Shown here: positions 6,675 to 49,300 of the stretch, piece by piece
Position numbering within the stretch: the stretch's first letter is position 1
How the letters are laid out: each line of letters begins with the position of its first letter
Source: Actinomycetes bacterium
GTDB lineage: Bacteria > Actinomycetota > Acidimicrobiia > Acidimicrobiales > JANYDT01
DNA length: 58,939 nt
Direction: 5' to 3'
NCBI GenBank assembly: GCA_031368095.1
Contig: JANLQX010000514.1
Span: forward strand, 1-58,939
The notes under the pieces: model-generated
What the model was told of the DNA's origin: nothing
What the model saw: only the letters and a program-made list of their open reading frames with translations
Databases searched by the model: none
Position numbers and translations under genes: made by a program

Positions 6675-6974
6675 CTATTTACGGAGGATATCAAGCACTT
6701 TTTCCAATTTATCTTTCAACATGGAAATATCCGCCTTCAGCGATCCAAGGTCGCCAGCAATCTCCTCTCTGGTGACCCAAACATTCTCGGATCTTGTCTC
6801 ATGGGGAAAGCTATCGGCATAGCCCATTCTCCTTAATTTTCCCTGAATTTTTCCGGGAACGGAAACTCTTCCGGTCTCGTACGCCGAGTAGGATTTTTGG
6901 TTAGATCCAAGTTTTTGAGCCATTTCGGTTTGCGTCAAACCCTTTTCTATACGCCAATTCTTTAAATTTTGCAT
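6675..6974 (-). CDS. XRE-family HTH repressor (CI-like)
   Basis: HTH sequence WRIEKGLTQTEMAQKLGSNQKSYSAYETGR. It is divergent from the + strand gene at 7092, and a minus-strand promoter sits just upstream. Confidence 0.8.
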   Translation of the reverse strand: MQNLKNWRIEKGLTQTEMAQKLGSNQKSYSAYETGRVSVPGKIQGKLRRMGYADSFPHETRSENVWVTREEIAGDLGSLKADISMLKDKLEKVLDILRK

Positions 6975-24043: not shown

Positions 24044-24571
24044 ATGTCGGAAGATCTTAAGAAAACAGGGAGGGTTCGAGTTCCGGCAAAGCACAAAAGG
24101 AACTTCGAGGAGACCCATGAAATACTCACGGAAGCCTATGTGACGTTTCTAACCAATGGCTACCCGAAATACCCCAACCCAAAAATGAAGCAGCCGACGA
24201 TCAAGCAGCTTTGCGAAATCGCAGAAATGAACAAGAGGACAGTGGAAAGACACCTGGCGGAACTCGACAAAGACCTGAACTTCACCCGTCGAGCAAGCAA
24301 GTACAGACTGGCATCCGATGTGATTATGAAGTCATGGCTAAAAGCAGCAGTCAAAGGGAACGTCGCTGCCGGTGAGAAATTCATGCAGGTATCCGAACAG
24401 ATTAATTTCGGGTCCATTGTGAAAATAGAGACTGGAGATCTTTATCCCGGGCCGGATTTGGTGAAGCTAGGCAAAGAAGACTTGATAGCCTATAAAGCCC
24501 TTATGAAGAAGATGGCCGGAAAGGCGGAAAGTGGTAACTCTCAACCCGCACCACGAACTACACAGGATTGA
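24044..24571 (+). CDS. terS: Terminase small subunit candidate (HTH)
   Basis: Position immediately upstream of and overlapping TerL. HTH-like segment PTIKQLCEIAEMNKRTVERHLAEL. Confidence 0.55.
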   Translation: MSEDLKKTGRVRVPAKHKRNFEETHEILTEAYVTFLTNGYPKYPNPKMKQPTIKQLCEIAEMNKRTVERHLAELDKDLNFTRRASKYRLASDVIMKSWLKAAVKGNVAAGEKFMQVSEQINFGSIVKIETGDLYPGPDLVKLGKEDLIAYKALMKKMAGKAESGNSQPAPRTTQD

Positions 24572-26097: not shown

Positions 26098-28104
26098 GTG
26101 GAGTTTTCCGACTTCATGCGAGATCTCCGTTACGATAACGGCGATGGGACAGATGTTCGTCAGGCCTATAAGAAAAATGTTTGGGTTTATGCATGCGTTC
26201 GAGCCATTTTCAATGGGCAGAATACCGTACCTTGGTACCTCCGCGATGAACGAACCCAAGAGCGCGTTAAAAAAACCAATCCATGGCAGCGCCTATTCCT
26301 GAATCCTAACCCGCTTATGGAATGCATGCAGGTCTGGAAGATGCATACCATACTTTTCGAAACCAAGGGTGAGTCTTTTTGGCTTTTGTTCGATGCGTAC
26401 ATGAAGCCTGTTGCGCTAAATGCGGTTCCGGATTCAATGTGGGTTTACGGGCCCGATAAAGTAACGCCATGGATTGATACCGATACACAGACATTCAAAG
26501 GGTGGAAGTACAAAGCACGCCTAGACCGGGAAGAGTACCAGTACTTCCGACCATGGCAGGTGCTGCGATTCTTCGACGTGGACCCAGACAATGTATTCAG
26601 GGCTTTAGCGCCTATCGAGCCAGCATCAATGTCCATTAAGGTTCAGGGCAAGGCTATGGGATTCAATGAGTCCTATTTGGACAATGGAGCAAAGGTTGAC
26701 GGCGTAATTAATATCGACGCTGAGACTTATCAGGCAATGGGTGAAGAAGGCTTGGAGGCCATGCAGGAACGCTTTGCCGATAGGTACGGCGGATACCGTA
26801 AGAACGGAAAGACCCCAATTATCGCGGGCGGAGATTTCAAGCCTACTGGTTCCGGTCCAAAAGACATGGACTTCCAGAACCTTTCGGAATGGACAAGAGA
26901 GGAGATCATCGGTGCTTTTGGTGTGCCAGAACTACTGGTAGGCCTAACTAAAAATTTAAACATGGCGACTTCTCAAGAAGAAATCAAGATGTTTTTCACT
27001 AACAATGTCATTCCAAAGCTTGACTACTGCGCTTCCGTAATCAACAACAAGCTTCTGCTTGGAACCGGTGTGGAGTTCTATTGGGATAAGCACGCAATTA
27101 AAGCCCTTCAAGATGCCTTGGACTCAAAGGTGGCCAACGCTGTTGAGCTTGTTACTGTTCTCGGGTACTCAACCAACGAAGTAAACAGAAAATTGGAATT
27201 GGGCATGGATGAAATCAAGGAGAAGTGGGCGGATACGCCTGTGGACCCAAGAACACTGAACCAGGCGGCCCCGACTGTTCCTCCAGGAAAAGGCAGCAAA
27301 AAGTCCGAAGAGATGTCCGATCCAGAATTGATTAGCCTGTCCGCCGATCGAGACGTGGCGATGGAATACTGGAACGATGTTGTGAGGCCGGTCGAAAATC
27401 GAATGCGGCCTAAAATTGTGTCGTACTGGCTACGGATGAAGAAAGACCAGCTCGAAAGGTTTGATTCGAAGTTTGGGAAGGAAGCGTCTGTATTATCAAA
27501 GTCATTCGAGGATGATTTGCAGCAGGCGATGTTCGACAGCGAGAAGTGGGACAACAAGCTTCGATCTGAAAGTCTTCCTTTCCACCAACAGGCGTTCACT
27601 AATTCGGTCGCTCATTTGCGCGAAGAAATCGACACGTTCTATGTATTCAAGCCCGGTTCGGAAAAGGTGGCCGCGCTCCTGGCACAAAAGAACAGCCGAA
27701 TCACCGGAGTGAACGACACTTTTAAAGAATCCCTGCTTGCCAGTCTGGCCGAGGGAGTAAAGCTGGGCGAGAGCATTCCTGTGCTTCGCGGTCGAATAGT
27801 CACGCAGTTCAGCGCGAAGATTGACACGGCGAATACCATTGCCAGGACCGAGACGGCGCAAGCCGCTGGAATGGTTCGCCACATGGCAATGGAGGATGAG
27901 GGCCTACTGAAAAGGTGGGTATCCGCCCATGATGGCCATGAGAGAAGCGCCCACCTCCGGTTTAATAACCTGCCGGCAAAAAGCTTGAATTACGAATATG
28001 CCAAGGGCTTGAAATTCCCCTGCGATCCTGATTGCAGTGACGCGGCACAGGTATGCAACTGTCGATGCTTTGAGAAAGCGGAGCGAAGGCCGGAAGCTCA
28101 GTGA
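26098..28104 (+). CDS. Portal protein fused to a Mu F-like (SPP1 gp7-like) minor head domain
   Basis: The N-terminal ~400 aa are portal-like (GESFWLLFD...). The C-terminus TIARTETAQAAGMVRHMAMEDEGLLKRWVSAHDGHERSAHLRFNN...CNCRCF matches Phage_Mu_F. Confidence 0.75.
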   Translation: MEFSDFMRDLRYDNGDGTDVRQAYKKNVWVYACVRAIFNGQNTVPWYLRDERTQERVKKTNPWQRLFLNPNPLMECMQVWKMHTILFETKGESFWLLFDAYMKPVALNAVPDSMWVYGPDKVTPWIDTDTQTFKGWKYKARLDREEYQYFRPWQVLRFFDVDPDNVFRALAPIEPASMSIKVQGKAMGFNESYLDNGAKVDGVINIDAETYQAMGEEGLEAMQERFADRYGGYRKNGKTPIIAGGDFKPTGSGPKDMDFQNLSEWTREEIIGAFGVPELLVGLTKNLNMATSQEEIKMFFTNNVIPKLDYCASVINNKLLLGTGVEFYWDKHAIKALQDALDSKVANAVELVTVLGYSTNEVNRKLELGMDEIKEKWADTPVDPRTLNQAAPTVPPGKGSKKSEEMSDPELISLSADRDVAMEYWNDVVRPVENRMRPKIVSYWLRMKKDQLERFDSKFGKEASVLSKSFEDDLQQAMFDSEKWDNKLRSESLPFHQQAFTNSVAHLREEIDTFYVFKPGSEKVAALLAQKNSRITGVNDTFKESLLASLAEGVKLGESIPVLRGRIVTQFSAKIDTANTIARTETAQAAGMVRHMAMEDEGLLKRWVSAHDGHERSAHLRFNNLPAKSLNYEYAKGLKFPCDPDCSDAAQVCNCRCFEKAERRPEAQ

Positions 28105-28269: not shown

Positions 28270-29373
28270 ATGAGCTTGAAACTGAAGCAACTCCTCGCAA
28301 CGCTGGCTCTCGAAGGCACGCGCACCATGTTATACGATAACAAGGGTGAAGGGTTCATGCCTGCCGAGGCTTTAGCAAAGTCCTTAGTCACCGCTGGCTC
28401 TGAAATCTCCACCACTGAATACCTGGAGATCTGCGATAAAAACGGTTTCAACCCCGAAGAAGATCCTTTGGATTTGGCAAATCAAACCTTGTCGGCCGAG
28501 GACAGGGCTACCCGCAAAACAGCCTATTTGGCCAAGCTGGTTTCTGAAAACAAAGCATCCAAAGTCTTGGAGCAGGATCGAATCCTTACCTTCAGAGCTT
28601 CCGACGAAAGCGTAGATAGGGCCGGAGACATCGTTCGGGTTGCAGGCTGGGAATTCACCGATTTCGAAAAGAACCCGGTATTTCTGGACGGGCACGACTA
28701 TCGCAAAGCTCCGATTGGCCGAGTGGTCAAGGTCTGGAAAGAGGAAAGCGACTCAGGAGCGGCAACAGGCAAGTCCATCATGGCTCGCGTTTACTTTCCT
28801 AACAAGGACATTTCCGAAGCTTCCGACGCTGCATATCGCGGAGTCAAAGGCGGCTTGTACAGCGCTGTTTCGGTTGGCTTTCAGCCTTCCTCAATCAACA
28901 ACCCAGAAGGCCAAGAAGAGCGCGATGCGCTTGGCCTTGGCCGGTATGGCGTGGAATTCCTAAAGCAAAAACTATGGGAGCTTTCCCTGGTCACCGTACC
29001 AGCGAACTCCAATGCCCTGGTTATCAACTCGGCCGAGCATGCCGAAATCTGTACTAAAATGGGTGTGCCGTTTGAATTAACTGAGAAAACTATTGAGTCC
29101 TCCGCCCCCGATATTTCAGCCGAAATAAAAGGATTCCGCGAAGAAATTTCCGGACTACGAGCGGATATAAAGTCTATCCTGGGCCTTTTCAAAGACCTCT
29201 CAGAAACAGTTAAAACTATCGAACAGTCCTGTGTGGAAATCATAACCCGATCGATTAAGTCAGACGCGAATGACGGCGGAGCTGGCCCCAGCCAAAAGGC
29301 TCCCGATGCTGTTGAAGCGCCAGACAGTTTCGAGAAGGCTTTGGAAGCCATCAAAGGCCTTAAAGTCTCGTAA
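28270..29373 (+). CDS. HK97-family prohead serine protease (S78) with C-terminal scaffold-like extension
   Basis: RILTFRASDESVDRAGDIVRVAGWEFTDFEKNPVFLDGHD...ELSLVTVPANSNA. Confidence 0.8.
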   Translation: MSLKLKQLLATLALEGTRTMLYDNKGEGFMPAEALAKSLVTAGSEISTTEYLEICDKNGFNPEEDPLDLANQTLSAEDRATRKTAYLAKLVSENKASKVLEQDRILTFRASDESVDRAGDIVRVAGWEFTDFEKNPVFLDGHDYRKAPIGRVVKVWKEESDSGAATGKSIMARVYFPNKDISEASDAAYRGVKGGLYSAVSVGFQPSSINNPEGQEERDALGLGRYGVEFLKQKLWELSLVTVPANSNALVINSAEHAEICTKMGVPFELTEKTIESSAPDISAEIKGFREEISGLRADIKSILGLFKDLSETVKTIEQSCVEIITRSIKSDANDGGAGPSQKAPDAVEAPDSFEKALEAIKGLKVS

Positions 29374-29406: not shown

Positions 29407-30597
29407 ATGACACCAGAACAGATTGCATCCCTGAAAGCAGCCCTTGAAGCCAAAGTAGCTGAGGGATTGATCTCCTTGGCATCGGCAAACAAGAGCCTGG
29501 AAGAAACCATTAAGAACATGGGCATCCAGATCGACGCTGTGAAATCCAAGCTCGCCGTCAGCCTGCCTGGCGTGGACCTTGGCACCAAGGATTCTGAGAA
29601 ATTCAGCTTCCTTCGTGTTTTCACCGGCCTCAAGACCGGAAACTGGAAGCATGCCGGCTTCGAAAAAGAAATCATGGACCAGACCCAGGAAAAGGCTTTG
29701 TCCGCTGGATCCGGTTCAACCGGTGGATTCATTGTTCCTGTTGAGTTCTCCCGTCAGCTCATCGAATTGTTCTACGCTCAGAGCGTGGTGATGAAGATGG
29801 GTGCAAGCCGCATCAACCCAACCGGAATTCCTTTCGAAATGCCCAAGATGATTGGCGGAGCTTCCGCTGCATGGGCAGATGAAGGTGCAACCATTTCGGA
29901 ATCCCAGCCCGCCTTCGGCAAGATTTCGATGACTCCGAAATACCTGACGGCATTGGTGCCCATGAGCGACCGCCTGATCGCCTACAGCGATCCGGCCGCC
30001 GAAGCCCTGGTCCGTAAGGACATTGTTCGCGCCTTGGATTTGAAGCTTGACTTCGGTTGCCTGTACGGCGATGGAACTCTTTCCAGCCCCGTCGGCATCG
30101 TCAACCAGGAGGGAATCAATACCCTCGAAGTCGGCGCGAACGGCGATGACCCCACCTATGATTTCATGATCGACATGGAAGGACAAGTGGAAGATGCGAA
30201 CGCCTTGGATGGCGAGCTTGGTTTCATTTCCAATCCCGCTGTCTTCCGTAAAATTCGGAAGCAAAAGGTTGCTCAATACGCCGGTCAGACCGATGGCAAT
30301 CCTTTGTTCCAGCCCATTATGACCAAGGACCAGCTCACTGGTGCAATTGGCAAGTGGGCATCCTCAACCCAGGTTTCCAAGACCAGGGCCAAAGGCTCAG
30401 CCACCACTCTTTCCAGCCTGATCTATGGCAACTGGGCCGAACTGCTTGTAGCGGTATGGGGATCCTTGGTGTTGAAGTCCTCCGACCAGGTGTACTTCAA
30501 GCAGAACATTACTTGCCTCAAGGCAGTGATGGAAGCGGACTGCGCTCTGCGCCACGCCAAATCGTTCAGCTACGCACCTTACGTCACGACCATCTAA
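29407..30597 (+). CDS. HK97-family major capsid protein
   Basis: Coiled-coil delta-like N-terminus, then GGFIVPVEFSRQLIELFYAQSVVMKMGA. A terminator lies immediately downstream. Confidence 0.85.
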   Translation: MTPEQIASLKAALEAKVAEGLISLASANKSLEETIKNMGIQIDAVKSKLAVSLPGVDLGTKDSEKFSFLRVFTGLKTGNWKHAGFEKEIMDQTQEKALSAGSGSTGGFIVPVEFSRQLIELFYAQSVVMKMGASRINPTGIPFEMPKMIGGASAAWADEGATISESQPAFGKISMTPKYLTALVPMSDRLIAYSDPAAEALVRKDIVRALDLKLDFGCLYGDGTLSSPVGIVNQEGINTLEVGANGDDPTYDFMIDMEGQVEDANALDGELGFISNPAVFRKIRKQKVAQYAGQTDGNPLFQPIMTKDQLTGAIGKWASSTQVSKTRAKGSATTLSSLIYGNWAELLVAVWGSLVLKSSDQVYFKQNITCLKAVMEADCALRHAKSFSYAPYVTTI

Positions 30598-31584: not shown

Positions 31585-32205
31585 GTGGATATTACTACTC
31601 TGACGCGAGTAAAGCTTCTGGCTGGTGCTGCCAGGGACGGATCTGATGACACAGTGCTCGCTCAGATTATCGTCGGCGTTTCTGCTATGGCAGAGCGCGA
31701 AATGAAAATGGGCGTACACAGGTGCAAACGTAAAGAAACCATGAATGTCATTCGGCATCAGAAGGTTTTTAATCTCAAAAATACGCCGGTTTCAACCATT
31801 GTCTCTGTTAAAAATGATCAATGGGATATTCCTGTTTCCGCAGTCCAATGGGAATCGAACGGGATCATCCGTATCGCTGGCGACGCTATTTATACCTCTA
31901 TGGGAAGGACCACAACGCCGTTCGCTGGAACTATTTTGCGTGGCGAGCTTTACTACGGACCAGGCATGCTGATTGTTGAATATATAGGCGGCATGGCTAC
32001 CGATACTGCTGAATTTTGTGAGAAGTACGAAGATATTGCTTATGAAGCCGACAAGCAGGTGGTTTTTGAATTCCGTAGGATGAAAACGATCACAGAAAAG
32101 TCCGTATCTGCTGGGGGCGCAACTACATCATTTGAAACATTCGATGTACGTCCATCATTCCTAAAGGCTTTGCATAGCCGAAGGCGTAGGGTGTGGCTTG
32201 CCTAG
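31585..32205 (+). CDS. Head-tail connector (gp6-like) candidate
   Basis: N-terminal TLTRVKLLAGAARDGSDDTVLAQIIVGVSAMAEREM resembles gp6-like adaptor proteins. GTG start. Confidence 0.5.
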   Translation: MDITTLTRVKLLAGAARDGSDDTVLAQIIVGVSAMAEREMKMGVHRCKRKETMNVIRHQKVFNLKNTPVSTIVSVKNDQWDIPVSAVQWESNGIIRIAGDAIYTSMGRTTTPFAGTILRGELYYGPGMLIVEYIGGMATDTAEFCEKYEDIAYEADKQVVFEFRRMKTITEKSVSAGGATTSFETFDVRPSFLKALHSRRRRVWLA

Positions 32206-33495: not shown

Positions 33496-33617
33496 TGAAA
33501 GAAATATCAAATTTTGAGCGTAATAAGCCGCTCTATGCACTGATATTCAGAGAATAAAAACTTATACTGATTTGGAGAAAGTCGTCCAAATGAAACAAAT
33601 ATGAAAGGGTTAATACC

Positions 33618-34259
33618 ATGAGCGGATTTATGTCCTTATTCAAGCAAGAGGCACTAAAAGGGACGTACCCCCTCGCCACAGACAACCTGAAGGGCGTGCT
33701 AGTAAAACTCCCTTCCGTGACTTCTGCCATGGTTAAAACCATTAGTGCTGCTACGAATGCAAGCCCTACGGTAATCACTTCCACGGCACACGGATTCGCC
33801 AACAACGACCGCGTGTCTATTTCTGGTGCTGTCGGTAATACCGCAATCAATGGCCGCTGGAAATTGGCGTCCGTTGCCGCAAACACGTTCCAGCTTGTGG
33901 ACATCATCACTGGCGCGGCCGTAAATGGAAACGGTGTTTTCAGTGGTTCGTGCTACGTTGTCAATTTGACCACGCTACAATTCCTGACCTCGATTGACGT
34001 GGCAGCCCGCGCATCGACTTCTGGAAATCTGGGGTCGAAGACTTTTACATTGGGAGTCTTCAGCTTTGCCGTCATCACTTTCACAGCCGTCACCACAGGG
34101 CAAACCAGCCAAGCGGTGGTGTTCTACGACGACACGCCAGCCACTGACGCTACTAAACCCATCATAGCCATGGACGACGGCGCGACGAATTTACCTGTGC
34201 TCTCAAACGGTGGCGACATCACATACACTCCCAATGCCTCTGGCCTTGGGGAAATCTAA
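33618..34259 (+). CDS. Virion protein with E1-FCCH-like beta-barrel motif
   Basis: PTVITSTAHGFANNDRVSISGAVGNTAINGRWKLASVAANTFQL matches the recurrent phage FCCH-like module. Confidence 0.55.
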   Translation: MSGFMSLFKQEALKGTYPLATDNLKGVLVKLPSVTSAMVKTISAATNASPTVITSTAHGFANNDRVSISGAVGNTAINGRWKLASVAANTFQLVDIITGAAVNGNGVFSGSCYVVNLTTLQFLTSIDVAARASTSGNLGSKTFTLGVFSFAVITFTAVTTGQTSQAVVFYDDTPATDATKPIIAMDDGATNLPVLSNGGDITYTPNASGLGEI

Positions 34260-34269
34260 AGGAAGACAA

Positions 34270-34656
34270 ATGGATAATCAAAAAATTGCAATCGACTTGA
34301 TGACCGAAGACAATTTGCAGGGGGCTACTCTTGTGGAGCTTGAGCTCCTGCAAACGGAACTGGGAGCCGTGGCCAATACGTTACGGGCCAAGCAGGCTAT
34401 GGTCGCGAAGGTAACGGAAGCCAAGCAGCTGGCCGCCAATGCCGTGCGCAAGGCTGGCACCTTGACAGAAGAAGAGAAGACCGCGTTGCAGGCGCATTTT
34501 GCGGCGGAAGCCGCTATCAAGGCGTCGGACATTTCGGACGAGGAAAAAATTCTCGCGTTGGACGCGTTGAATAAAACCGAATCCAAACCTGCTGCCCAAA
34601 ATCTTGGTGGTGATCATATTACCAAGGACGCGGATCAAATAAACTCGGGTTCATAG
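34270..34656 (+). CDS. Hypothetical coiled-coil protein
   Basis: ATG 34270 follows AAGGAAG. Ala/Glu/Lys-rich. Confidence 0.55.
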   Translation: MDNQKIAIDLMTEDNLQGATLVELELLQTELGAVANTLRAKQAMVAKVTEAKQLAANAVRKAGTLTEEEKTALQAHFAAEAAIKASDISDEEKILALDALNKTESKPAAQNLGGDHITKDADQINSGS

Positions 34657-34688
34657 ACGGGGCAGCCTTTCTATACGGCGAGAATTCG

Positions 34689-34722
34689 GCCCGCCCTTTG
34701 TTAAGTCAAGGCGGGCTTTTTT
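34689..34722 (+). terminator. Rho-independent terminator
   Basis: GCCCGCCCTT...AAGGCGGGC hairpin followed by TTTTTT. Confidence 0.75.
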
Positions 34723-34747
34723 GTTTTAAGCAAAGGAGGATCTTAAA

Positions 34748-35347
34748 ATGGCTGCAATGGTCAAAACCCAAGCGGTAAGCCTACTCACAATTCAAGCGCT
34801 GGCATCAAACGCTGTTGTCATAAGCACGGTAGTGGACTGGGCTACAAAAATGGCCGCTTCCATTTTCCTGTCCTTAGGGCGAGACGACAGTGCTGGTGCA
34901 TTGGCTGTTCCGTTCAACTTCCGTGTACAGGGGACGCCAGACGCATCAGGCGACCGTCGCTGGATGGATCTGGCGGTATTCCAGTCGGGGATTACTGTCC
35001 CTGAGCCGGAGGCAATCACAGGAACGCAGAGTATTGGGGCTACAACGCTTACCTTAGCCTCTACAGTTAATTTCGCGATTGGTCAACTGGTACTGCTCAA
35101 GAATACCACCATTGGCAATAGCGAGTTTGCTCGAATAAAATCTTTCGTTGCAAATACGAGCTTTTCCCCTATTGACCCAATAACCTCTGCCCAAACAGGC
35201 TCGACGCTTTACACCCAGGCGGAGCAGTTTGTTTTGCAATTGGATTTAACCAGCATCGAAAGGGTGCGTGTAGTAGCTGATAATTCCGGTACGGGCCGGT
35301 CAGTAGTGGTCGAAGCGTATGCCATCACTGGAGACAGCTTTACTTGA
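34748..35347 (+). CDS. Hypothetical beta-rich virion protein
   Basis: RBS AAAGGAGGA upstream. The stop overlaps the start of the giant fibre gene. Confidence 0.6.
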   Translation: MAAMVKTQAVSLLTIQALASNAVVISTVVDWATKMAASIFLSLGRDDSAGALAVPFNFRVQGTPDASGDRRWMDLAVFQSGITVPEPEAITGTQSIGATTLTLASTVNFAIGQLVLLKNTTIGNSEFARIKSFVANTSFSPIDPITSAQTGSTLYTQAEQFVLQLDLTSIERVRVVADNSGTGRSVVVEAYAITGDSFT

Positions 35348-38300
35348 TTTTAAACCACGCGGCCGTACGAAACAAGCGGCCAACTTATCGTGCAGATATT
35401 GATTGTTGCAACCCGCTTGCGCGTGGACTTGTCTTTGCCGCCTACCCACTTGGTGGTAATTTCTATGATGCTATCAGCAAACAGGTGTCGGCGAATTTCT
35501 CCGTAAATCCAACAACCCGCCCAACCATCGATGGGAATAAAGCGAACACCCCTGAGATGCGAGGGACTACAGCAAACTTCCCTCAGTACACCACTCAGTT
35601 GGATCAGTTAGTAGGTAAATACTCTCTATTTGCTGAGGGATCCTTATTAACCAACGCAACGTCCTCACTTGTATTTGACTCTTTCTCGTCCGTATCTGGT
35701 AACGGCCTGGGTTTAAAGTTCGACGATCTCAACTTGATAACGAATGGGTTTTTCCTCTTCCTTCAGAACGGGAACAGCTCTGCCTCAAACGCTGATGTAC
35801 TGGGTCTCAATTCGGAAAATTTCAAGCACCGCGTGATGATTACCGGCGATGGCGCGAATGTTCGGCTGTACGCGAAAAACAAGCTGGATGTTACTGTCGT
35901 AAATGCAGTCACACCGCTAGCATCCACAACTAGGCAAACACGATTACTCTCGAGTGGTACAGCCGCCCTAGGACTAGCGCTTGCGTGGAATCGCGTGCTT
36001 TCGCTGGATGAATACCAATCGCTTTTTAATAACCCAGATCAGTTATTCAAAAGCCTTCCGCGTCGTCGGTATTTTGTTGTTGGCGCTTTCACTAAAAACC
36101 TTAGCGGGGTTTTTTCATCTACAGATGAGCCTTTTGCGATCGGTGCCATTTTAAAAGGAGCGGTCAATCTTAGTGGTGTTACAAACAAAACCGACGAAAA
36201 TGTCAACGCAGGTCTGACGGCCTTCTCAACCCCTATAGGTGGGGCAAGCATAAAAACAGACGAGGCTATTGGGCTTGCGTCCATGCTCGTTGCTCCCCCA
36301 CCTTTATCCGGGCAGAATATCAGCACTGACGAAAAGCAAAACACTGGTAATGTTTTAGTTGGCGCGCGCGCTTTAGCTGGTGCCTCGGCAACCACGGATG
36401 AAAAGACGTACACGGGATTAACCAACTCCTTGCCGTATACCGCACTCTGGGAAGAGAAAGCGAATACCAACCTCGGAAGCGTAAAACCGGCCACAGCCCC
36501 ACTAGGAGCCACCGGGTACACCGCCGTAATGACCGCGTGGGGTGGCGGTGTCTTTGGTGGTGGTTATTTTATGATCGCCTGTAACGGTGGTCACACAGAT
36601 TATGCAGGCAACGAGGTGTACGGCTTGCCTATATCCACCTATGTGCCTGTGCTTTTGCGTCAACCAACCACAAACGCAATCATAGCGGGTTCTTCGACGA
36701 TCGAGGCCTCGGGGCTTTATGCCACGGCAGCCGTAGGCAACACCCCGGACCCACAAGCACCGCGTTCCAGACATGGTTACAGCATGGCGCAGTGGTGCTC
36801 GGTTAAGTCGAAAGTGGCTTTGATGGGTGCATTCGGGGAGTACATTGCGGCTGGCCAATCCTCTGTCATTCGCTATTACGATCCGGTAGCCAATGATTGG
36901 GAAACAGGACCAACCATCCTAACCCCATTCGATGGGGCATATTCCGCAACGATTGAAGACACCTCTGGTAACCTGTGGTTTCTTGGTGCCGGTTCTGGTG
37001 GCCGGTTGAACCGAATAGTACCATCCACTGGGGTGGTCACTGAGTTTGGCGACATTTTCATGCACGCCATGCAAAGCTATCCTCGTACTGGGGTGTATGA
37101 CTCATTAAATAACAGATTTTGGGTCTTCGGTGGCAATGGCACCGTCATGGAGACGGGATACTGGGATTTAAACAACCTAAGTGGAAATGTTGATTTTACC
37201 AGCGTGACGCCAACTGGCGACACAAACATTCTGCTGCAACCAGCCCCCGGCGCCGCGTGGTTTGCTGGTGACAATAAAATTATTCTCTGGAGCGGGGGCA
37301 CATCTGTAACCGTCTTCGACCCAACCACGTTCAAAGCGCAGTCGATCAGCCTAAATTCAGCCAACACCGTGACGCCTACTGCTGCCCAAGGAAACGGCAC
37401 ATACGGCAGATTTAGAGCGATTGGGCCAGACTCGTTTCTTGGTGTCAACTCCATGGACGGAAACTTTTTCAAACTACTGCTGCGCGGGGCGGATGTTTCC
37501 TTAGCTGGGTCAAACTCCCCGTCCGACTCCGTGACGCGCAACGGCAGCGCAGCCAACACAAGCGTCGGCCTATCCGGAAGTTTCTCAACCCCTGACTCGG
37601 ACATAAAACCCGGCACAGCTTTGATATCAAGCCAACCACTGCTGGGGACTGTTGGGGTGACGGATGAGTCTACTTTCCTAGGAGCTTTAGGGCTCGGCGC
37701 ACGGGCTTTGAGCGGCCAGTTTGCAGCGTCAGACATGGTAACAGCTCCTGGGGGCGTGGCGGCTTCCAGAAACATCCCTGGGGCCAATTTACTCACAGAC
37801 GAGGCAGCCAATAGCGGGGTGCTATCCCCATCAACCACGATACTGGGCGCTGGAAATTCCAGCGACGAGAGGGCATATGCCGGAGTCGCCGCCGTTAGTG
37901 CGCTGGCCCTAGCTGGTAACAATAGCCGGACAGATGAAAAAGCAAATATAGGTATCGCCTCTTCAGGATCGGTTAATCTTCCCGGAGCAGCGAACACCAC
38001 GGATGAAAAGCTCAATACCGGAGGCGTATCGCCCGCAACGTCCATACTAGGTGCAGGATGTTCAAGCGACGAGAAGCTTAATGCCGGAGTCTCAACCCTT
38101 GGTGCAACAGGCCTCCTTGGTAATGGCATCCAAACGGACGAAAAGTCAATCGCCGGGATTGCTGGTTTGGGTTCGCTTAACCTCTCAGGAGCGCCAAACA
38201 CCACCGATGAAAAACAGAACCCTGGAAGCGCCTTAGCATCCATAGGGCTCTCCGGCCAGTTCGTTCTCACAGACGACGGGTTTAGGTTGTCCACCATTGC

Positions 38301-39018
38301 CATGGGTCCATTAGCCTTGTCAGCGGCTTTCATCCCCACGGATGAAAAAAGCTATGCAGGCACACTAGGATTAAGCTTAGGGCCACAAAGCCTCTCGGGG
38401 GCCTATGCGTCCAGCGATGATGCTGCACGGGTAGGCACAATACAGCCAGGAGGCATTTCGCTTACCGGGACTTTTGCGCGGAACGATGAGCGTGCATATT
38501 CCGGTGGACTGGCTATGATCAGGGCTCTCCAAGGGTTAAGCATTTTAACGGATGAGCAGGCAAGTCAAGCGTCAATCGCGGTCAGTGCTTTTAACATTTC
38601 TGGTCAAAATATCCGTCCTGATGAAATCGCCGGCTTAGGTCAGGTCGGGGCCCTTCGCGCTTTGCTCGGGGCTGCGTTCGCCTCGGATGAAAAATCCCTG
38701 AGCGGGCTATTTGATTTTGCTACCGGACTTGCAGGTTCGAATATTCGACCTGATGAGAAAACCTTTGCAGGCACATTAGCTTTGGGGCTGGGTCCGCAAG
38801 GTCTATTCGGAGCGTTTACATTCAGTGATGAAGGTAATAGGTCGGGACTAATACATTCGAGCGCAATATCTCTAAATGGATCCTTTTCTTTCACCGATGA
38901 GCGTACTTATTCCGATTCCGGATCTAATGAATTAAGCTATTATGAATTGATAGAATGGGTTTCGGAAATAATTACACTTATTAGAGGGCAGAGCCCGATA
39001 GAATCGAGCGCCGCATGA
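35344..39018 (+). CDS. 1224-aa fibre-like protein: LamG-like N-domain, propeller-like middle, two blocks of ~22-25-aa [ST]DE[KR] repeats
   Basis: LALAWNRVLSLDEYQSLFNNP is LamG-like. GGGYFMIACNGGHTDYAGNEVYGL, RYYDPVANDWETGP and NRFWVFGGNG are Kelch/propeller-like. There are 5 repeats at nt ~36115-36430 and ~19 repeats at ~37650-38920. Confidence 0.75.
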   Translation: MILNHAAVRNKRPTYRADIDCCNPLARGLVFAAYPLGGNFYDAISKQVSANFSVNPTTRPTIDGNKANTPEMRGTTANFPQYTTQLDQLVGKYSLFAEGSLLTNATSSLVFDSFSSVSGNGLGLKFDDLNLITNGFFLFLQNGNSSASNADVLGLNSENFKHRVMITGDGANVRLYAKNKLDVTVVNAVTPLASTTRQTRLLSSGTAALGLALAWNRVLSLDEYQSLFNNPDQLFKSLPRRRYFVVGAFTKNLSGVFSSTDEPFAIGAILKGAVNLSGVTNKTDENVNAGLTAFSTPIGGASIKTDEAIGLASMLVAPPPLSGQNISTDEKQNTGNVLVGARALAGASATTDEKTYTGLTNSLPYTALWEEKANTNLGSVKPATAPLGATGYTAVMTAWGGGVFGGGYFMIACNGGHTDYAGNEVYGLPISTYVPVLLRQPTTNAIIAGSSTIEASGLYATAAVGNTPDPQAPRSRHGYSMAQWCSVKSKVALMGAFGEYIAAGQSSVIRYYDPVANDWETGPTILTPFDGAYSATIEDTSGNLWFLGAGSGGRLNRIVPSTGVVTEFGDIFMHAMQSYPRTGVYDSLNNRFWVFGGNGTVMETGYWDLNNLSGNVDFTSVTPTGDTNILLQPAPGAAWFAGDNKIILWSGGTSVTVFDPTTFKAQSISLNSANTVTPTAAQGNGTYGRFRAIGPDSFLGVNSMDGNFFKLLLRGADVSLAGSNSPSDSVTRNGSAANTSVGLSGSFSTPDSDIKPGTALISSQPLLGTVGVTDESTFLGALGLGARALSGQFAASDMVTAPGGVAASRNIPGANLLTDEAANSGVLSPSTTILGAGNSSDERAYAGVAAVSALALAGNNSRTDEKANIGIASSGSVNLPGAANTTDEKLNTGGVSPATSILGAGCSSDEKLNAGVSTLGATGLLGNGIQTDEKSIAGIAGLGSLNLSGAPNTTDEKQNPGSALASIGLSGQFVLTDDGFRLSTIAMGPLALSAAFIPTDEKSYAGTLGLSLGPQSLSGAYASSDDAARVGTIQPGGISLTGTFARNDERAYSGGLAMIRALQGLSILTDEQASQASIAVSAFNISGQNIRPDEIAGLGQVGALRALLGAAFASDEKSLSGLFDFATGLAGSNIRPDEKTFAGTLALGLGPQGLFGAFTFSDEGNRSGLIHSSAISLNGSFSFTDERTYSDSGSNELSYYELIEWVSEIITLIRGQSPIESSAA

Positions 39019-39332
39019 GTCAGAAAATTGGATCTGATTTCGATCTTGTTCTAGACACTAAAAAAGTGATTATAGGCTATTCAAGCATTAAGATAAAATA
39101 CCAGAAACCAATACTGGAAGGCGCTGTTCCAGTGACTGGGTTTCTAACTGGATCCGTATATGGAACAGGAAGCCTTAAAATAAAAGTTTCAGTTCCCGGA
39201 TCTTTATGGAATGCTTTGGGTATTTGGAGTTTTATAACATGGGTAGAATTTTCGGATGGGCGGATCCTAAAGGGAAATAAGAATTTCGACTTAGAGGCAA
39301 CAGAGGAATTTTCGGATAGTACTTGTTGTTAA
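39015..39332 (+). CDS. Hypothetical small beta protein
   Basis: ATGA coupling to the fibre gene; 105 codons. Confidence 0.55.
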   Translation: MSQKIGSDFDLVLDTKKVIIGYSSIKIKYQKPILEGAVPVTGFLTGSVYGTGSLKIKVSVPGSLWNALGIWSFITWVEFSDGRILKGNKNFDLEATEEFSDSTCC

Positions 39333-41217: not shown

Positions 41218-41654
41218 TACTCTCATCCAGTATTTACTCCGGGCATCTTTCGCCTCACACATGCCCAACTGATGAAGTCAGCAGGGAAGCGTGGGGGTGT
41301 GATGCACCGGCCGCCACGGCAGGGTGGGAGTTGGTTTGTTGGCGGTGCGTCGGTCAAAAATATCAGGAGGAGGCGTGGATATGTCCAGAATGCAAAGGGA
41401 TTGGAAAGGTGCCTCAAGACCGGTGCCCGAACGCGATCAGATCGAAGCCGGGGAGAGAATTGTTTCTGGCCTATCAAAGATTCAAAATGTATTCGGTCCT
41501 GCCTACATCGGGAGGGCTATACGAGCAGTCGGCCGCCTTCCTCAAGACTTTGGAATTGTGCGACACGGCAATAGCATACCTCGACCGGAAGCGGGACGAG
41601 TGGAATCAGTTTCTAAGGGATAAGGCAGAGAAGAGAGCAAATCGAGATGTCTAA
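41214..41654 (+). CDS. T segment of the G-T frameshift fusion (carries a CxxC...CxxC Zn-ribbon)
   Basis: The -1 frame reads LILSSSIYSG...VCWRCVGQKYQEEAWICPECKGIG...LPTSGGLYEQSAAFLKTLEL. Its stop overlaps the tape-measure ATG (ATGTCTAA). Confidence 0.6.
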   Translation: MILSSSIYSGHLSPHTCPTDEVSREAWGCDAPAATAGWELVCWRCVGQKYQEEAWICPECKGIGKVPQDRCPNAIRSKPGRELFLAYQRFKMYSVLPTSGGLYEQSAAFLKTLELCDTAIAYLDRKRDEWNQFLRDKAEKRANRDV

Positions 41655-44286
41655 ATACAGCATTGAAATTCCGATAGAACTCCAGGACAGGTTGTCCCAC
41701 GAGTTTGATCGTCTTTCCGCTGTTGTCAAAGGCAAAGAGCAAGTAATACGCAATGCCATGGCTTCTGTGAAAGACAGAAGCACGGAATCAATGACCGCCA
41801 TTAAGGCTGGAATCGAATCCCTTGGAAAAGCCAAGGTAGACCTGCGAAATTTAGAAGCGCTTAGGAAGGAGATGAGCGAAGTCGCAAACGGTTCTTCGAG
41901 CGCAGCAAATCAGACCCGTATATTCTACCAAGAGCTTTTAAAGTCGAACGCTGCTCAGTCAAAGGCTGCTGGATCTGCAAAAGGGCTTAAGACCGAAATA
42001 GACGGGGTTTCGCAATCAAGCATTCGAGCTGCGAATATTTTTAAGAGTGTTCTTGGAGCGAACCTTGTTACCGGTGCCTTCTATAGCCTTATAAGTGCCG
42101 GAAGAAGTTTGATTGGGACGTTTATAGACGCAAACATTCAGTATGAGCAATCTTCGGTAGCTTTCGAAGTAATGCTAGGTAGTGCGACGAAAGCCAAAGT
42201 GCTTTTGGCACAGGTATCTCAGTTTGCTGCTGAAACTCCGTTTCAGCTTCCCGAACTTAATGCAGCCACAAAAGCACTCCTTGCTTTTGGTTCAGGTGCC
42301 GGTACCGTGGTGCAAGAACTCCGTAGGATTGGCGATATTTCATCTGGGGTAAGCGCTCCTATCGGAGAGATTGCAGCCATTTACGGTAAAGCGAGAGTGC
42401 AGGGCCGCCTCTTCGCGGAGGATATCAACCAGTTCACCGGTCGCGGAATTCCAGTCATTCAAGAGTTCGCAAAGATACTGGGAGTCGCCGAAAATAAAGT
42501 TAAGGATATGGGAGCCAAAGGCCTCATTACTTTCGATACGCTAGATCAAGCATTTGTCAATCTTACAAGCTCAGGCGGAAGATTTAACGGCATGATGGCC
42601 AAGCAGTCCCTAACGCTAGGCGGATTAATCTCGACCATTAAGGACGACTTTACACAGGTGCTTCGCGACATCGGTGAGGGCGGGCTGATGGACAAGCTGA
42701 GGAGTATCGCGAAAGATACGGCAGACTGGTTCTCGGTTAATAGCGAGAAGGTCAAAGCGTTTGCGAATGAACTCGGGTCAAAACTTGGAAATGCAATTTC
42801 ATTTACGCTAAATCACATGGGTGAGCTTCTTGATATCGGAAAAGCGTTCTTCATTGTTTTCTCCGTAGTGAAATTGGCGCAGCTTGTGCTTGGAATAAAT
42901 ACCCTAGGCATCGCTTTGAAGGCGTTGGTGCTGACCAATCCTATATTGGCCGGTGTAAGCCTGCTACTACTTGCCGGAGTCACCGCATACACACAGATCA
43001 CTCGCGCCACGGAAGACTTCAACGATGAGAATAAAAAACTTAAGGAAGGCGAAGATTTATTATTCAGCTACAACAAGCAGTTGGAGCGGACAAAGACGCT
43101 TTCTGAAAAGGTGGCAGATCTCCACAAGAAGGCGATGGAAAACAACCCTTTCGCCTTTGTTGGCACTCCCGTAGAGGAAAAGAAAAAACAAGCATCTGCT
43201 GCTCCTGTGATTCTCACCGAAGCCCAGAAAAAGCACTCTACAGAAATGCTGGCGCTTAAAGAAGAGGCTGCCAAAATTTCCGCTAAAATTAACCTGAACG
43301 GGAAAGAACTGGAGATCGCCGACGAAAAAGCAGCGTATACTAAACGGCTTGCCCTTGCTGGAAAGTTTACGGACTCGATTAAGATCATCAATCAGATACA
43401 TAAGGATGCGCTAACCGAAATAGATCAAAAATATTCCAAATTGTCTGAAGCTGCCAGAAAGGCTGACGCGCTTTCTGTTGGTGCCGAGTACGCTAAATTT
43501 CTAGAGAGCAAATCAAAACTGCAAGACGAGATAGAAAACCTTACGATGACTTCTCAGGAGCGAGAGGTCAAGCAAATAAAAGATCATTACGCTGCACTAT
43601 TGAAAGAGGCCGAGGCTCATTTCTTCAATAAAAAAGAATTGAAAGAGAAAACCGATATAATTGAAAAAGCTCAATCCGAAAGCATAAAAATTCAGGAAAA
43701 GAAGCAAGCGATTGAGAAATATCAGAACGCTTACCAGATGGCTTCCAACATTATGCAAACCGGCGACATGCTTTTCGCTCATAGCCGCAAAAATGCAATT
43801 CTGCACAAAACATTAGCAATTGGAGAAATCGCGGTGAACACTGCAAGAGCGATAATGGCAACATTGGGTACAGGAGGGTACTTAGCCATTCCTCTGGCAT
43901 TTACAATAGGCGCGCTAGGTGTCGCTCAGGCAGCAGTAGTCGCTAGGCAGAAATTCGAGCGCGGCGGTCCAGTTGGTGGTGCAGTCTTTGGTCGGAACCA
44001 TTCCCAGGGCGGCGTACCCATTGAAGTTGAAGGCGGGGAATTCATTTTCAGCAGGCGTGATGTGCAGAACGCTGGCGGCGCTGGAGCGCTTGAGGCGATG
44101 CGCCACAGCCAATTCAAAAATCCAGGTAGCGCAGGAGGCAACAACGTCTCCGTCACCTACGCCCCCGTCTACCCTTCAGGTGCAGATAGTTACGGTCCTT
44201 CTTTCACTGAAGCTGCAAGGAGAGACAAGGTTGAGTTTGGGAGGTTTATGGAAAAGGAACTTAAGGCGAAAGGGTACGTGAACTAA
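41647..44286 (+). CDS. Tail tape measure protein
   Basis: Core FAAETPFQLPELNAATKALLAFG...IGEIAAIYGKARVQGRLFAEDINQFTGRGIPV (TP901-type), with hydrophobic segments and long coiled coil. 879 aa. Confidence 0.85.
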   Translation: MSKYSIEIPIELQDRLSHEFDRLSAVVKGKEQVIRNAMASVKDRSTESMTAIKAGIESLGKAKVDLRNLEALRKEMSEVANGSSSAANQTRIFYQELLKSNAAQSKAAGSAKGLKTEIDGVSQSSIRAANIFKSVLGANLVTGAFYSLISAGRSLIGTFIDANIQYEQSSVAFEVMLGSATKAKVLLAQVSQFAAETPFQLPELNAATKALLAFGSGAGTVVQELRRIGDISSGVSAPIGEIAAIYGKARVQGRLFAEDINQFTGRGIPVIQEFAKILGVAENKVKDMGAKGLITFDTLDQAFVNLTSSGGRFNGMMAKQSLTLGGLISTIKDDFTQVLRDIGEGGLMDKLRSIAKDTADWFSVNSEKVKAFANELGSKLGNAISFTLNHMGELLDIGKAFFIVFSVVKLAQLVLGINTLGIALKALVLTNPILAGVSLLLLAGVTAYTQITRATEDFNDENKKLKEGEDLLFSYNKQLERTKTLSEKVADLHKKAMENNPFAFVGTPVEEKKKQASAAPVILTEAQKKHSTEMLALKEEAAKISAKINLNGKELEIADEKAAYTKRLALAGKFTDSIKIINQIHKDALTEIDQKYSKLSEAARKADALSVGAEYAKFLESKSKLQDEIENLTMTSQEREVKQIKDHYAALLKEAEAHFFNKKELKEKTDIIEKAQSESIKIQEKKQAIEKYQNAYQMASNIMQTGDMLFAHSRKNAILHKTLAIGEIAVNTARAIMATLGTGGYLAIPLAFTIGALGVAQAAVVARQKFERGGPVGGAVFGRNHSQGGVPIEVEGGEFIFSRRDVQNAGGAGALEAMRHSQFKNPGSAGGNNVSVTYAPVYPSGADSYGPSFTEAARRDKVEFGRFMEKELKAKGYVN

Positions 44287-46348: not shown

Positions 46349-49300
46349 GTGAAATTTGGCGAGACCGGCGACTCTATCCACGCTTTAAGCTTCTCGGTGC
46401 AAGAGGGGTACTCCACGCCCGCCTGGCCATTTGATAAGACCGTCAAGGTGCTCAAAGCTATCGACGGGACGATCATCGACAGCATCAACTTTGGAGCGAG
46501 GCAGCACAGAACCGCCGAATTCAATATCAATTACATGACCAGGGCCGATCACTACACTCTGAAAACATATTTCGACGCAAACCGTGGCCTCAAAATCCGC
46601 GTTGAACTTGAGAATACCGGAGAGCGAGTATTTGGGGAGCAGTATACCGGAACAGTCTACTATGCTTACCTCCTAGCCGCTGATTCCATGGGGGAGACGG
46701 CGTTCTCCCCATCCCACACCATGTACGGCTATTCCCTAAAGATGGACTTCGCCGGCACTGCTTCAAACTCAGTCCCCAATCCTGCCGACTCATCCGACTA
46801 TGACATCCTGGTGACCATCGACTGCGTCCGCGTGACTGCCGGGTGCCAGGTGGCGAACCTGACCGCGCTCCAGGCCATTCGCAACAAAGATGGCGGTAGC
46901 CGTGGGATGGCCCTGGATACGAGGAAGGTGTACTTCTACAATATTGCTGCATGGACCGAGAGCGGCGACAACAATAATCAGCTTTCACGGTACGAAAATA
47001 TCACCGGCTTTCAGGCGAACTGGGATGCCAACAGGCGTCTTTATTTCTCCCTAGGTGCCCCTTCCGGAGGGGCTAGCGCGTTGAGCATCTTCAAGGATGC
47101 GGCCCGCACCCAATTGATTGGTCATACCATTTCTACCGCCGTTTTCGGGCAGGCCGACGGTAACCTTGTCGACATCATCCCAGACAACAACTCCGGGCTC
47201 GGTGGGAAAATTGCCTTCGACGCACACACGGCAGCGGACACAGACATTCAGATAGACTACGGGTTTTGGGATTACCAGTACACAGCACCAGCCAATGACG
47301 CTGCCCAAGGGCTTAAGAACGGGGTATTCCGCCTCTCAGCCTTCGCGGACATCTCCGGAAGCTCATCAGGTATTTCAGCCACCCTAGGAACCGCCGAGGA
47401 CTTTAAATCCGGCTGGATTGTGGAGAAGTCCATCAAACTCCCACGATATTCCGTTGATGCTCGCCAAGGGCCTGCCATCGAGCACCCGGAGGGGTTCGCC
47501 TTCGCTCTGGACAACTCCTCAAAACGGTGGAAGTACCCGCTTGATAACAACCTTGCTTTCTATGGCGCCTACTGCCAGCTTTACGTCTATGATCGATTGT
47601 CAGGGCAACTGGTCCTATTGAGAAGCGGCTACAACAATAAGAACGGGTTCGACTACACACGGTTTGAGTTTGAAATAGAACCGAGCGTATTCCTTCAGAA
47701 CAAATCCTTCCCTGTCACGGTGATTGGTAAGGGCAATTACCCCAACGCAGCGGATACCATGCGCGGAAAGCCGGTCCTGGCCACGTATGGACGGTGGGAT
47801 AAAGGGCTTCTGCAAACTGTGGCGTTTAATATGGATCCGATTCGGTTTCCGAACAAAAAAAAGAACTTGGCCGTTAAGTCTTGGAATTCGGGCACCCTTA
47901 AAATGGTTATTGACTTACCACCCAGCGAAATTTCCATTGTCCTTGGATCCGCATATACAAGCTATCCTGCTACCATTTACCAATACCTTTATGTTTCAAT
48001 ATTCTACCAACAGGATCAAACGGACCTTAAAAAACTCCGGAAGGTCCTTTCTGTTTCTTCGTCCTCCGGAAATACTGAGCTAACACTTGAAAAAGGCTTT
48101 GCCGATGCTGTCGACACGACGGCGATCGTTGTCCTTTACCTATCTAACGTCCAAATTTTGATAGATGAAAACGCGTCAGTTGGTTTGCGAGAAGTAGACT
48201 ACCTGGTTAAAGGAAATTCAGGCGCAACCCCTCTGGAGCTTTTTGCAAAAGATGGAGAAGTCGTTAAGCCGGTTATTGACACTATGTTTAAAGTTGTCGC
48301 GGATGGAAAGAAAAACCAATTAACCGTCGATACCAACGCAATTTTACTGGATACCACGGGCGACCTAATCGCGGGGCAGTCTACTCCTTTGGATATCGTT
48401 TCTCCTGAAAACCTGCACGCAATAACGGACAAGCGACACGCAAACGGATACGACTACTTCGATTTTGGCTTTTCTCCTAAAGGGGTAGATTCAAATGAGG
48501 TCTCTGAATACGCTGGCGAAGCGGTTCGTGGAAACTGGCAAGGCTACAGAAGCGAGGGGAGGATTCGCGCTATTTTTTCCCCCACGTTTACGACCCTAAT
48601 TTGGACCACATACTTAAATGCCTCAGCTTACACGCTCACGCGGTACCTGTGCACCTATAGGAAGGGTGAAAACAATCTGTATATAGAACCCCAAGGCCGC
48701 GTTCTTGACACCACCTTCGGAACAGCGGGATCGGGCGTAAAATTAGAGAACGGATCCACGGCGTCTGTGTCTGCTGGCGTAGTCACTATTCCGGGTGGGA
48801 GTTCCTTTGTAGCTATAGACCAAAGCGTCAACAACACTGAAACACGGGCTTACGAATATCGTTTACAACCCATTGAAACCACAACCGGACCGGCGTTTCG
48901 CGTTTCTTCCCGTGGTTTTAATAGACCCGTTCCAAGTGGATCCGCTGGGTTGGTTTCCTTAGACGTTAAGGATTTTGTACTTCTGGCGTGGCCCGTCCCA
49001 ACCACACAGGCTGGCTTTACAGTTTTTCAAAAGCAAGATCCAGCAGATTTCGCCCAGGTCGCGGGGATGCCTGTTTCTAGTCCTACGCTTGGATGGTATA
49101 AGACGGCAAGCTTGACCCCAGGGCAAAAATATACCTTCATGGTTTCCATCAACAGCTTAGCCATTGGGTCCGGAGGGGATTCGTGGTTTGTTCCTTCCGG
49201 GTATGCAAGCGATCACGGCATACACCAATTGCTGCACGCTGGCGATGCTTATTCGACGCTGCCGTACCAAACCATGCGGGATTCCCCAAACTGTGACCTC

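Follow-up and report, generated by a model that had tools for sequence, protein, structure and literature searches.

The question raised by contig JANLQX010000514.1, analysed here at its full length of 58,939 nucleotides (nt) and called the window, is to what kind of structure a giant repeat protein of 1224 amino acids (aa) encoded among late phage genes belongs, and with which of its neighbours it forms a unit. An earlier note, made from the sequence alone, had described a terminator-bounded cassette of three coupled open reading frames (ORFs) of 199, 1224 and 105 aa, and had suggested a head or neck fibre, or a side fibre, inserted upstream of the tail-tube gene. The three ORFs are present, with TTGA and ATGA overlaps, and the gene order agrees with a fibre cassette inside the late structural operon, plausibly encoding an accessory fibre. 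The module is nevertheless larger than these three ORFs; it spans positions 33586-39332 and comprises five to six genes (Table 1). Our preferred reading, held at slightly better than even confidence, is that of a self-contained and horizontally mobile accessory-fibre module of a tailed phage, which carries base and adaptor proteins of its own.

Close homologues of the fibre protein were sought in 5.8 billion clusters, and only two were found, P0001 (97% identity) and P0002 (52%). On the contigs of these two proteins, the genes for a 213-aa and a 128-aa protein upstream of the cassette belong to the unit as well. A four-gene core, consisting of the 213-aa protein, a helical protein, the fibre and a small protein, was recovered in five contexts, i.e., the window and the loci L001, L002/L003, L004 and L006, with diverged copies of the module in L001, L003, L004 and L006. 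The block held in common with L002 and L008 contains 96 differences between the window and L002, and the two contigs are not related to each other anywhere else. Its left junction is intergenic, 32 nt before the 213-aa gene, and its right junction lies inside repeat unit 24 of the fibre. L002 carries a Portal_Mu portal and a Phage_cap_E capsid, both unrelated to those of the window, and its contig was binned in a 'Deltaproteobacteria' metagenome-assembled genome. The position before the tail-tube gene, to which the earlier note gave weight, turned out not to be fixed, with three different operon positions among the loci: in the window and L004 the module is preceded by connector genes and followed by the putative tail-tube gene, in L006 it has the portal gene on one side and the scaffold/capsid genes on the other, and in L002/L003 it adjoins the capsid and small terminase genes. 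By these comparisons the module is judged to be horizontally mobile, with a very recent transfer between unrelated phages. Outside these loci, the GenBank phage collection gave no match to the DNA of the region, the fibre, the 199-aa protein, the N-domain of the fibre or the repeat block, and scans of IMG/VR with alignments of the fibre, the 199-aa protein and the N-domain returned no relatives. Two ORFs beside the module copies of IMG/VR contigs were recorded in addition. At L003 5022-5891, an unrelated 289-aa ORF replaces the 199-aa gene after the 213-aa and helical genes, and the contig ends soon after. At L004 13992-14627, the fibre module is separated from the putative tail-tube gene by a 211-aa Cys-rich ORF, which by eye is HNH/homing-endonuclease-like and, if this is right, would be a possible agent of module mobility.

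The first two genes of the module are separated from the others by a GC-rich hairpin at 34688-34717, directly followed by TTTTTTGTTTT. The 66-nt fold has an energy of -21.5 kcal/mol (z-score -2.35). A GC-rich stem, a directly adjoining U-run, location on the coding strand and an intergenic position are the features of a Rho-independent terminator, although a simple terminator scanner did not report the hairpin. L001, L004 and L006 have an equivalent hairpin and T-run, of different sequence in each case, at the corresponding intergenic position, and all four sequence-distinct versions of the module thus have one between the 128-aa-type gene and the next gene. At the 3' end of the 105-aa ORF there is no terminator; 18 nt with a ribosome-binding site lead to the next gene. 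The hairpin and T-run upstream of the 199-aa ORF were consequently seen correctly, while their role as boundary was not: lacking a terminator after the 105-aa ORF, the cassette would be bounded at one side only, and the element is conserved in position inside a larger module that starts at 33586 with two more genes upstream, which makes it an internal feature. For the second of these genes, coding for the 128-aa protein, ATG 34270 was taken as the start. The mechanically called ORF begins further upstream, at GTG 34210, which gives it an overlap of 50 nt with the 213-aa gene; the chosen start agrees with the homologues in L002 and L003 and has AAGGAAG shortly upstream. The 128-aa protein is kept in all module copies (37-98% identity) and looks helical and charged as judged by eye. 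No family match was obtained for the 199-aa protein in any library. The TTG start of the fibre gene is kept in L002 and L001.

A HMMER profile of fibre residues 1-1141 was run against 1.84 billion cluster representatives and matched 1082 proteins, 361 of them at E<=1e-10. Judged by these matches, the parts of the fibre are independent modules. The N-domain (residues about 8-245) heads many proteins of 250-500 aa and is nearly always N-terminal, while the propeller (about 369-715) occurs in many proteins of 350-460 aa and in larger ones. The globular domains of the fibre gave no direct match in Pfam (E<=0.1), PHROGs or NCBIfam, and for the whole fibre no similarity to any PDB chain was detectable. 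The assignments of the earlier note, a LamG-like N-domain and a Kelch-type propeller, hold at the level of family profiles and not as direct Pfam matches. For the N-domain, the gathering score of Laminin_G_3 (PF13385) was not reached by the window protein, which had no match at E<=0.1. Among ten close homologues nine had no match either and one was sub-threshold (E 0.0034, 18 bits against 27.6), and 16 of 60 N-domain homologues matched PF13385 (best E 2.6e-12). Comparison of the N-domain family by hhalign with the N-domains of P0008, which is a protein with PF13385 on record, P0005, P0004 and the 615-aa protein of L004 gave a probability of 97.7% and E 1.7e-12 over 218 columns. The N-domain profile found nothing among PDB sequences at E<=1. 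Membership of the N-domain in the Laminin_G_3 superfamily, as a divergent sub-family with a leader of its own, is supported by these family comparisons.

The propeller was treated in the same way. No Kelch family of Pfam reached its gathering score in the window protein, and P0002 and P0001 gave only sub-threshold matches to Kelch_1, Kelch_6 and Reg_prop. Kelch families were matched by 49 of 55 propeller relatives, and profile A11, built from the window domain and 23 relatives, found Kelch structures both designed and natural (SAKe, KLHL20 and KEAP1) down to E 1.2e-21. A Kelch-type propeller, in a divergent sub-family below the Pfam thresholds, is supported as the probable identity of the domain. 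Residues H417, H477, Y479 and R689 are invariant in the family, and Y420, N423 and E424 nearly so, which suggests a putative binding or catalytic site. Eight of the 55 relatives, which are bacterial, also carry an N-terminal barrel of PcRGLX type (rhamnogalacturonan-lyase-like). An AlphaFold2 model of residues 1-760 from a four-sequence alignment had a predicted local distance difference test (pLDDT) score of 28.4; strands were predicted, the best blocks reached about 50 at residues 540-670, and the blade count was unreliable. A literature search on LamG/Kelch phage fibres found none and matched only the author name Kelch. The two domains do not form the lectin/propeller head on a shaft that had been suggested. 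That layout does not fit, because the LamG domain stands at the N-terminus and the propeller interrupts the shaft after five repeats.

The shaft itself is made of a repeat with the motif [ST]DE[KR]. When units were delimited by anchoring on this motif, 26 were counted, five before the propeller as in the earlier note and 21 after it, where about 19 had been given. Most are 23 residues long (16 units), the remainder 22 (eight units) or 25 (two units). In the unit alignment Asp is found in 26/26, Glu in 21/26, the Gly at position 8 in 22/26, Leu or Ile in 26/26 and the second Gly in 23/26. The motif expression matched 20 times in the fibre, where 0.025 matches are expected from composition-preserving shuffles; the six frames of the window contain no further match. 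Tandem Repeats Finder reported no tandem repeat at the DNA level, and the units are on average 30% identical in amino acids and 39% in nucleotides. Single units hold their position across distant homologues, e.g., the unit ending ...LAMIRALQGLSILTDEQ, and homologues differ in length by whole units, the gaps being 23 and 45 residues. Because the units have diverged, positions are held, insertions and deletions comprise whole units and no nucleotide repeat is left, the array is best read as old and differentiated. This bears out the description of a 22-25-residue repeat conserved in the protein and not at the DNA level, old rather than a recent expansion. A recent tandem duplication or an assembly artefact was rejected on the same observations, i.e., the missing nucleotide repeat, the diverged units and the positions kept across homologues.

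The repeat also matched no described family, as had been supposed: Pfam, PHROGs and NCBIfam gave no match, a profile of six repeat proteins found nothing in PDB at E<=10, and the repeat block had no counterpart in 50,697 GenBank phage records (tblastn). The repeat is rare without being unique: it was found in at least five further phage proteins from metagenomes, which makes at least six proteins in all. Among the 150 best of the 1082 profile matches, arrays were seen in P0005, P0008 and P0055; they are also present in P0001, P0002 and the 615-aa IMG/VR protein of L004. P0008, whose use as query in a homologous-protein search returned P0008 itself only, and the 615-aa protein consist of LamG and repeats only and have no propeller. 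P0005 has the propeller type of the window, and the propeller sequence of P0055 is unmatched by the query profile; in each of the propeller-bearing relatives the propeller is placed after three to five units. P0004 and P0006 keep the layout with other repeats of 22-23 residues (LSLTQxxPxxxGxAxxxLxAxA and VSLNSFVAQGIxGAxxVxPGxVx, respectively), which suggests a broader group of shafts that have this period in common. The AlphaFold2 model of the repeat block (residues 711-1224), for which the earlier note had suggested a beta-solenoid-like shaft, was made from an alignment of three sequences and had a pLDDT of 30.5. As a separate observation, a cluster of 23 among the 96 differences from L002 was seen at 37750-38000 (units at about residues 803-886), with 12 nonsynonymous and 11 synonymous changes; upstream of this stretch the same gene has nine nonsynonymous and 23 synonymous ones. 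The cluster could be a patch of local diversification or gene conversion.

The ends of the fibre vary together with neighbouring genes, as scored within five modules. Past the right junction the window and L002 no longer agree, either in the C-terminus of the fibre or in the small gene behind it. From residue 1142 the window fibre has two more repeat units and then a segment at residues 1199-1213, YYELIEWVSEIITLI, which is drawn as a helix in an AlphaFold model with pLDDT below 50 throughout. Another kind of end, with an RxxGxY motif, was found in P0001, P0005, P0008, P0055 and P0004 and is absent from the window fibre; most of the relatives with repeat shafts have two or three copies of the motif there, and against PDB the motif gave chance matches only. 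The RxxGxY end is accompanied by a protein of 106/107 aa (L002 and L006, 60% identical). The 105-aa protein of the window, which changes together with the fibre C-terminus, is distantly related to the 103-aa protein of L004 (z-score 7.1), itself resembling the 107-aa protein of L006 (z-score 7.4); against PDB it had a weak titin match only. At the other end, the 199-aa protein accompanies the window-type N-domain only (window, L001 and L002), and in L004 and L006, with the LamG domain of P0008 type, two or three other small proteins stand in its place, with a pair of 139/169 aa plus 150/170 aa. The small proteins 3' of the fibre end in Cys motifs in the window (SDSTCC, 39318-39329) and in L001 (STCGGC, 6794-6808), and are otherwise not detectably similar.

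The 213-aa protein is the best conserved member of the module, with 63-99% identity among six copies. The peptide MSGFxSLFKQEALKGTYPL is conserved at its N-terminus, a beta-barrel-like segment is inserted in the chain, and the C-half matches phrog_644 (E 7.5e-20). The inserted segment had a weak, sub-threshold match to E1_FCCH. A domain common to this segment and the beta-barrel-like segment of the 199-aa protein was considered and rejected (z-score 1.6, not significant). Residues 111-202 aligned with residues 5-95 of PDB 9d93_Ra, 'Tail wing arm gp31' of phage Bxb1, at E 1.3e-4, and by this alignment the C-half is a predicted homologue of gp31, the only solved relative of the cassette proteins. 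Shorter phrog_644 proteins are present in more than 160 phage records, mostly of Mycobacterium and Pseudomonas phages, where they are annotated as minor tail or hypothetical proteins. In L005 the phrog_644 protein is encoded directly 3' of the portal gene.

For the mobile accessory-fibre module that we favour, the following working is proposed. The 213-aa and 128-aa proteins, encoded before a leaky terminator, would be made in excess and form the virion-proximal base. Because of the internal terminator and the conserved weak TTG start, we infer a step down in expression, with lower output of the downstream genes. The 199-aa protein may act as the adaptor that links the base to the LamG-type N-domain of the fibre, since it co-varies with the type of this domain. 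The 1224-aa protein would oligomerise into a fibre with a shaft of 23-residue units and a Kelch knob after the fifth unit. Its variable C-terminal end would work with the small downstream protein, as tip partner or chaperone, because the two co-vary. The LamG and Kelch domains would bind, and possibly cleave, polysaccharide on the host surface. The outcome would be a reversible, avidity-based primary adsorption, besides that by the tail-tip receptor-binding proteins encoded after the tape measure. Several points weigh against this proposal. The cassette proteins are known from their genes alone, from which we infer their presence in the virion, and with pLDDT scores of 30.5 and 28.4 the oligomeric state and fibrous shape are deduced from the repeat architecture only. 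A base conserved at 63-99% would have to attach to particles whose portals, capsids and tails are unrelated, and no explanation for this was found. A virion-proximal end would not usually carry a LamG domain, as the N-terminus does here, and the leakiness of the terminator and the expression ratios are assumed. Finally, the repeat is known from only about six proteins, so that the co-variation rests on five modules. A bolder version of the proposal, which we think rather unlikely, is that the [ST]DE[KR] units build a fibrous fold with no solved relative, possibly an oligomeric beta-structure with a ladder of the invariant Asp/Glu and perhaps cations, and that the cassette is plug-and-play, with the conserved 213-aa base docking on unrelated virion lineages.

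Where on the virion such a fibre would sit is pointed to differently by two sets of data, as the gene neighbourhoods suggest the head or neck in three contexts and the only solved relative suggests the tail tip. A head-borne fibre, in which the 213-aa protein would be a multi-copy decoration of HK97-fold capsid lattices that carries a head fibre or a portal-proximal collar whisker, is a real possibility, though an unlikely one. It is favoured by L006, where the module stands between the portal and the scaffold/capsid genes, by L002/L003, where it abuts capsid genes, and by the phrog_644 protein directly after the portal gene in L005. A high-copy protein would be in keeping with a 213-aa gene that lies ahead of the terminator. 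Tailed-phage capsids are expected to have the HK97 fold, and this would be one structural feature common to all host genomes of the module and in line with a head location; the capsid proteins of these genomes match three different Pfam capsid families. Neck passage structures (NPS) of lactococcal phages provide a precedent, being dispensable collar fibres that end in carbohydrate-binding modules (PMC6669499). Such a location fits less well with Bxb1 gp31 at the tail tip, with the annotation of some mycobacteriophage homologues as minor tail proteins, and with the lack of similarity to known decoration proteins or to the BppU-like N-domain of neck passage proteins.

A side appendage at the tail tip, with its base on the distal tail or central spike and forming a lateral tail fibre, appears quite unlikely. 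Its model is the wing of Bxb1, an accessory tail-tip appendage in which gp31 binds the wing base gp30 (PMC12646305). Gene 30 can be deleted with the mutant remaining viable, and Hami1, a close relative of Bxb1, has no homologues of genes 30, 31 and 33 (PMC12646305). The wing is thus a dispensable multi-protein appendage from a small contiguous set of genes, and in this it is like the module of the window, as it is in the gp31-like domain of the 213-aa protein. In the window and L004 the module adjoins the putative tail-tube gene, and the variable C-terminus with a small variable gene resembles the tip/chaperone pairs of tail fibres; both point the same way. The module is unlike the wing in having no detected counterparts of gp30 (base) and gp33 (brush); searches of PDB with the fibre profile and the 199-aa protein (E<=1) found no homologue of either. 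It further differs by the extra inserted domain and the conserved N-terminal peptide of the 213-aa protein, and by a fibre of LamG, Kelch and 23-aa repeats that has no detectable likeness to a PDB chain. It lies away from the tail-tip genes, never adjoining the distal-tail genes that come after the tape measure, and in L006 and L002 it is in a head-gene neighbourhood. That the module is no virion part but a late-expressed moron, whose polysaccharide-binding or -degrading products, with the Kelch domain as enzyme, are released at lysis or displayed on the cell, is very improbable: its unchanged movement between unrelated virion chassis, the mostly bacterial secreted or surface proteins among propeller relatives, some fused to lyase-like domains, and the site suggested by the invariant polar H417, H477, Y479 and R689 would suit it, but the cassette proteins show, as judged by eye, neither an N-terminal signal peptide nor a membrane segment, the genes are always amid morphogenesis genes, co-oriented and translationally coupled with them, the 213-aa protein has a structural virion relative, and a repeat shaft with whole-unit insertions and deletions is typical of fibres.

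Among systems described earlier, the closest documented functional analogue of our proposed accessory-fibre module would be the lactococcal NPS, with which it has no sequence similarity. The NPS of 936 and P335 phages is a non-essential collar fibre with carbohydrate-binding modules for host binding of low affinity and high avidity; it consists of one protein, in which a BppU-like beta-sandwich at the N-terminus is followed by a trimeric coiled coil and, at the C-terminus, a carbohydrate-binding module (PMC6669499). Both would be accessory fibres with carbohydrate-binding parts. The window module differs in comprising five to six genes instead of a single protein, in having a repeat shaft instead of a coiled coil, and in the N-terminal and mid-shaft placement of its domains of sugar-binding type; comparison of the cassette proteins with the BppU and BppA sequences in PDB showed no similarity. 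A second comparison is with the endosialidase (endoNF) tailspikes of K1F. These are fibrous polypeptides in which a propeller is combined with stalk segments, and their assembly requires a C-terminal element; the propeller is a six-bladed sialidase, and the stalk is a triple beta-helix or prism of known fold. A beta-propeller embedded in a fibrous polypeptide would be common to both, whereas the propeller of the window fibre is of Kelch type, shows no sequence similarity in the PDB search, and has an enzymatic activity only by hypothesis. The globular domains of the window fibre are, by profiles, in the superfamilies of Laminin_G_3 (PF13385) and Kelch (PF01344 clan), and unlike the typical families both sub-families are divergent and below the Pfam thresholds.

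Positions 1-141 of the window are identical to 58799-58939, as is typical of a circular assembly, which makes the window a complete phage genome of 58,798 bp. Genes for tRNAs were not found in it. All late genes are on the plus strand, and the cassette genes are on the same strand, translationally coupled, within the late structural operon that comprises terminase, portal, protease, HK97 capsid, adaptor and, further on, the tape measure (Table 1). The portal gene codes for a 668-aa portal-MuF fusion, with Phage_portal at residues 30-365 and the Mu-F-like head morphogenesis domain at residues 548-657. The putative tail-tube protein (382 aa) had no match in a PDB search. A 1637-aa ORF at 46349-51262, 3' of the tape measure and two genes in distal-tail position, had no Pfam match; it is presumably a tail-tip or central fibre protein, in which case the phage has a separate device for primary adsorption. 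Far from the module, a 1285-aa ORF at 1163-5020 has a calcineurin-like phosphoesterase domain followed by AAA_23/SMC_N, and looks like a fused nuclease of SbcD-SbcC type. A reading of the region as a defence system was rejected, as PADLOC gave no matches.

Table 1. Positions of the module, its parts and neighbouring late genes in the window.
Feature	Position	Strand	Basis or remark
Large terminase	24531-25973	+	Library scans
Portal fused to Mu-F-like domain	26098-28104	+	
Protease	28270-29373	+	
HK97-type capsid protein	29407-30597	+	
Head-tail adaptor	31585-32205	+	
Block common to window and L002/L008	33586-38767	+	blastn; 5183 nt, 98.1% identity
213-aa protein, putative base	33618-34259	+	Pfam, PHROG, PDB, locus comparison
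128-aa protein	34270-34656	+	ORF list and homologue comparison
Intrinsic-terminator-like hairpin and T-run	34688-34728	+	Between 128-aa and 199-aa genes
199-aa protein, proposed adaptor	34748-35347	+	ORF list, locus comparison
1224-aa fibre protein	35344-39018	+	TTG start inside TTGA, overlapping previous stop
N-domain, residues 1-249	35344-36090	+	Divergent concanavalin A-like/Laminin_G_3, conserved leader NPLxRGLVFA
Repeat block 1, residues 260-373	36121-36462	+	5 units of 22-23 aa
Kelch-type beta-propeller, residues 374-715	36463-37488	+	
Repeat block 2, residues 727-1206	37522-38961	+	21 units of 22-25 aa
Fibre C-terminal end not common with L002, residue 1142 onwards	38768-39015	+	
105-aa small protein	39015-39332	+	ATGA overlap with fibre gene; weak Ig-like match
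Tape measure protein	41647-44286	+	

Accessory fibres with sugar-binding domains tune the adsorption of phages; as a rule, each is encoded by one gene and confined to one virion lineage. Compared with known accessory adhesion fibres, the module described here is unusual in its undescribed 23-residue repeat, its organisation as a multi-gene unit with an internal terminator, and its very recent transfer. The repeat is a candidate for a new fibre-shaft motif, with about six proteins so far among 1.8 billion cluster representatives. Here a multi-gene unit of putative base, adaptor, fibre, tip partner and terminator appears to have passed between phages whose heads are unrelated, the copies being 98% identical. 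If the products are virion-borne, this raises the question of how one base protein docks on different chassis, and the module would offer a natural template for the engineering of transferable adhesion modules. Should the plug-and-play version be true, a phage would gain a new adhesion organ in one recombination event.

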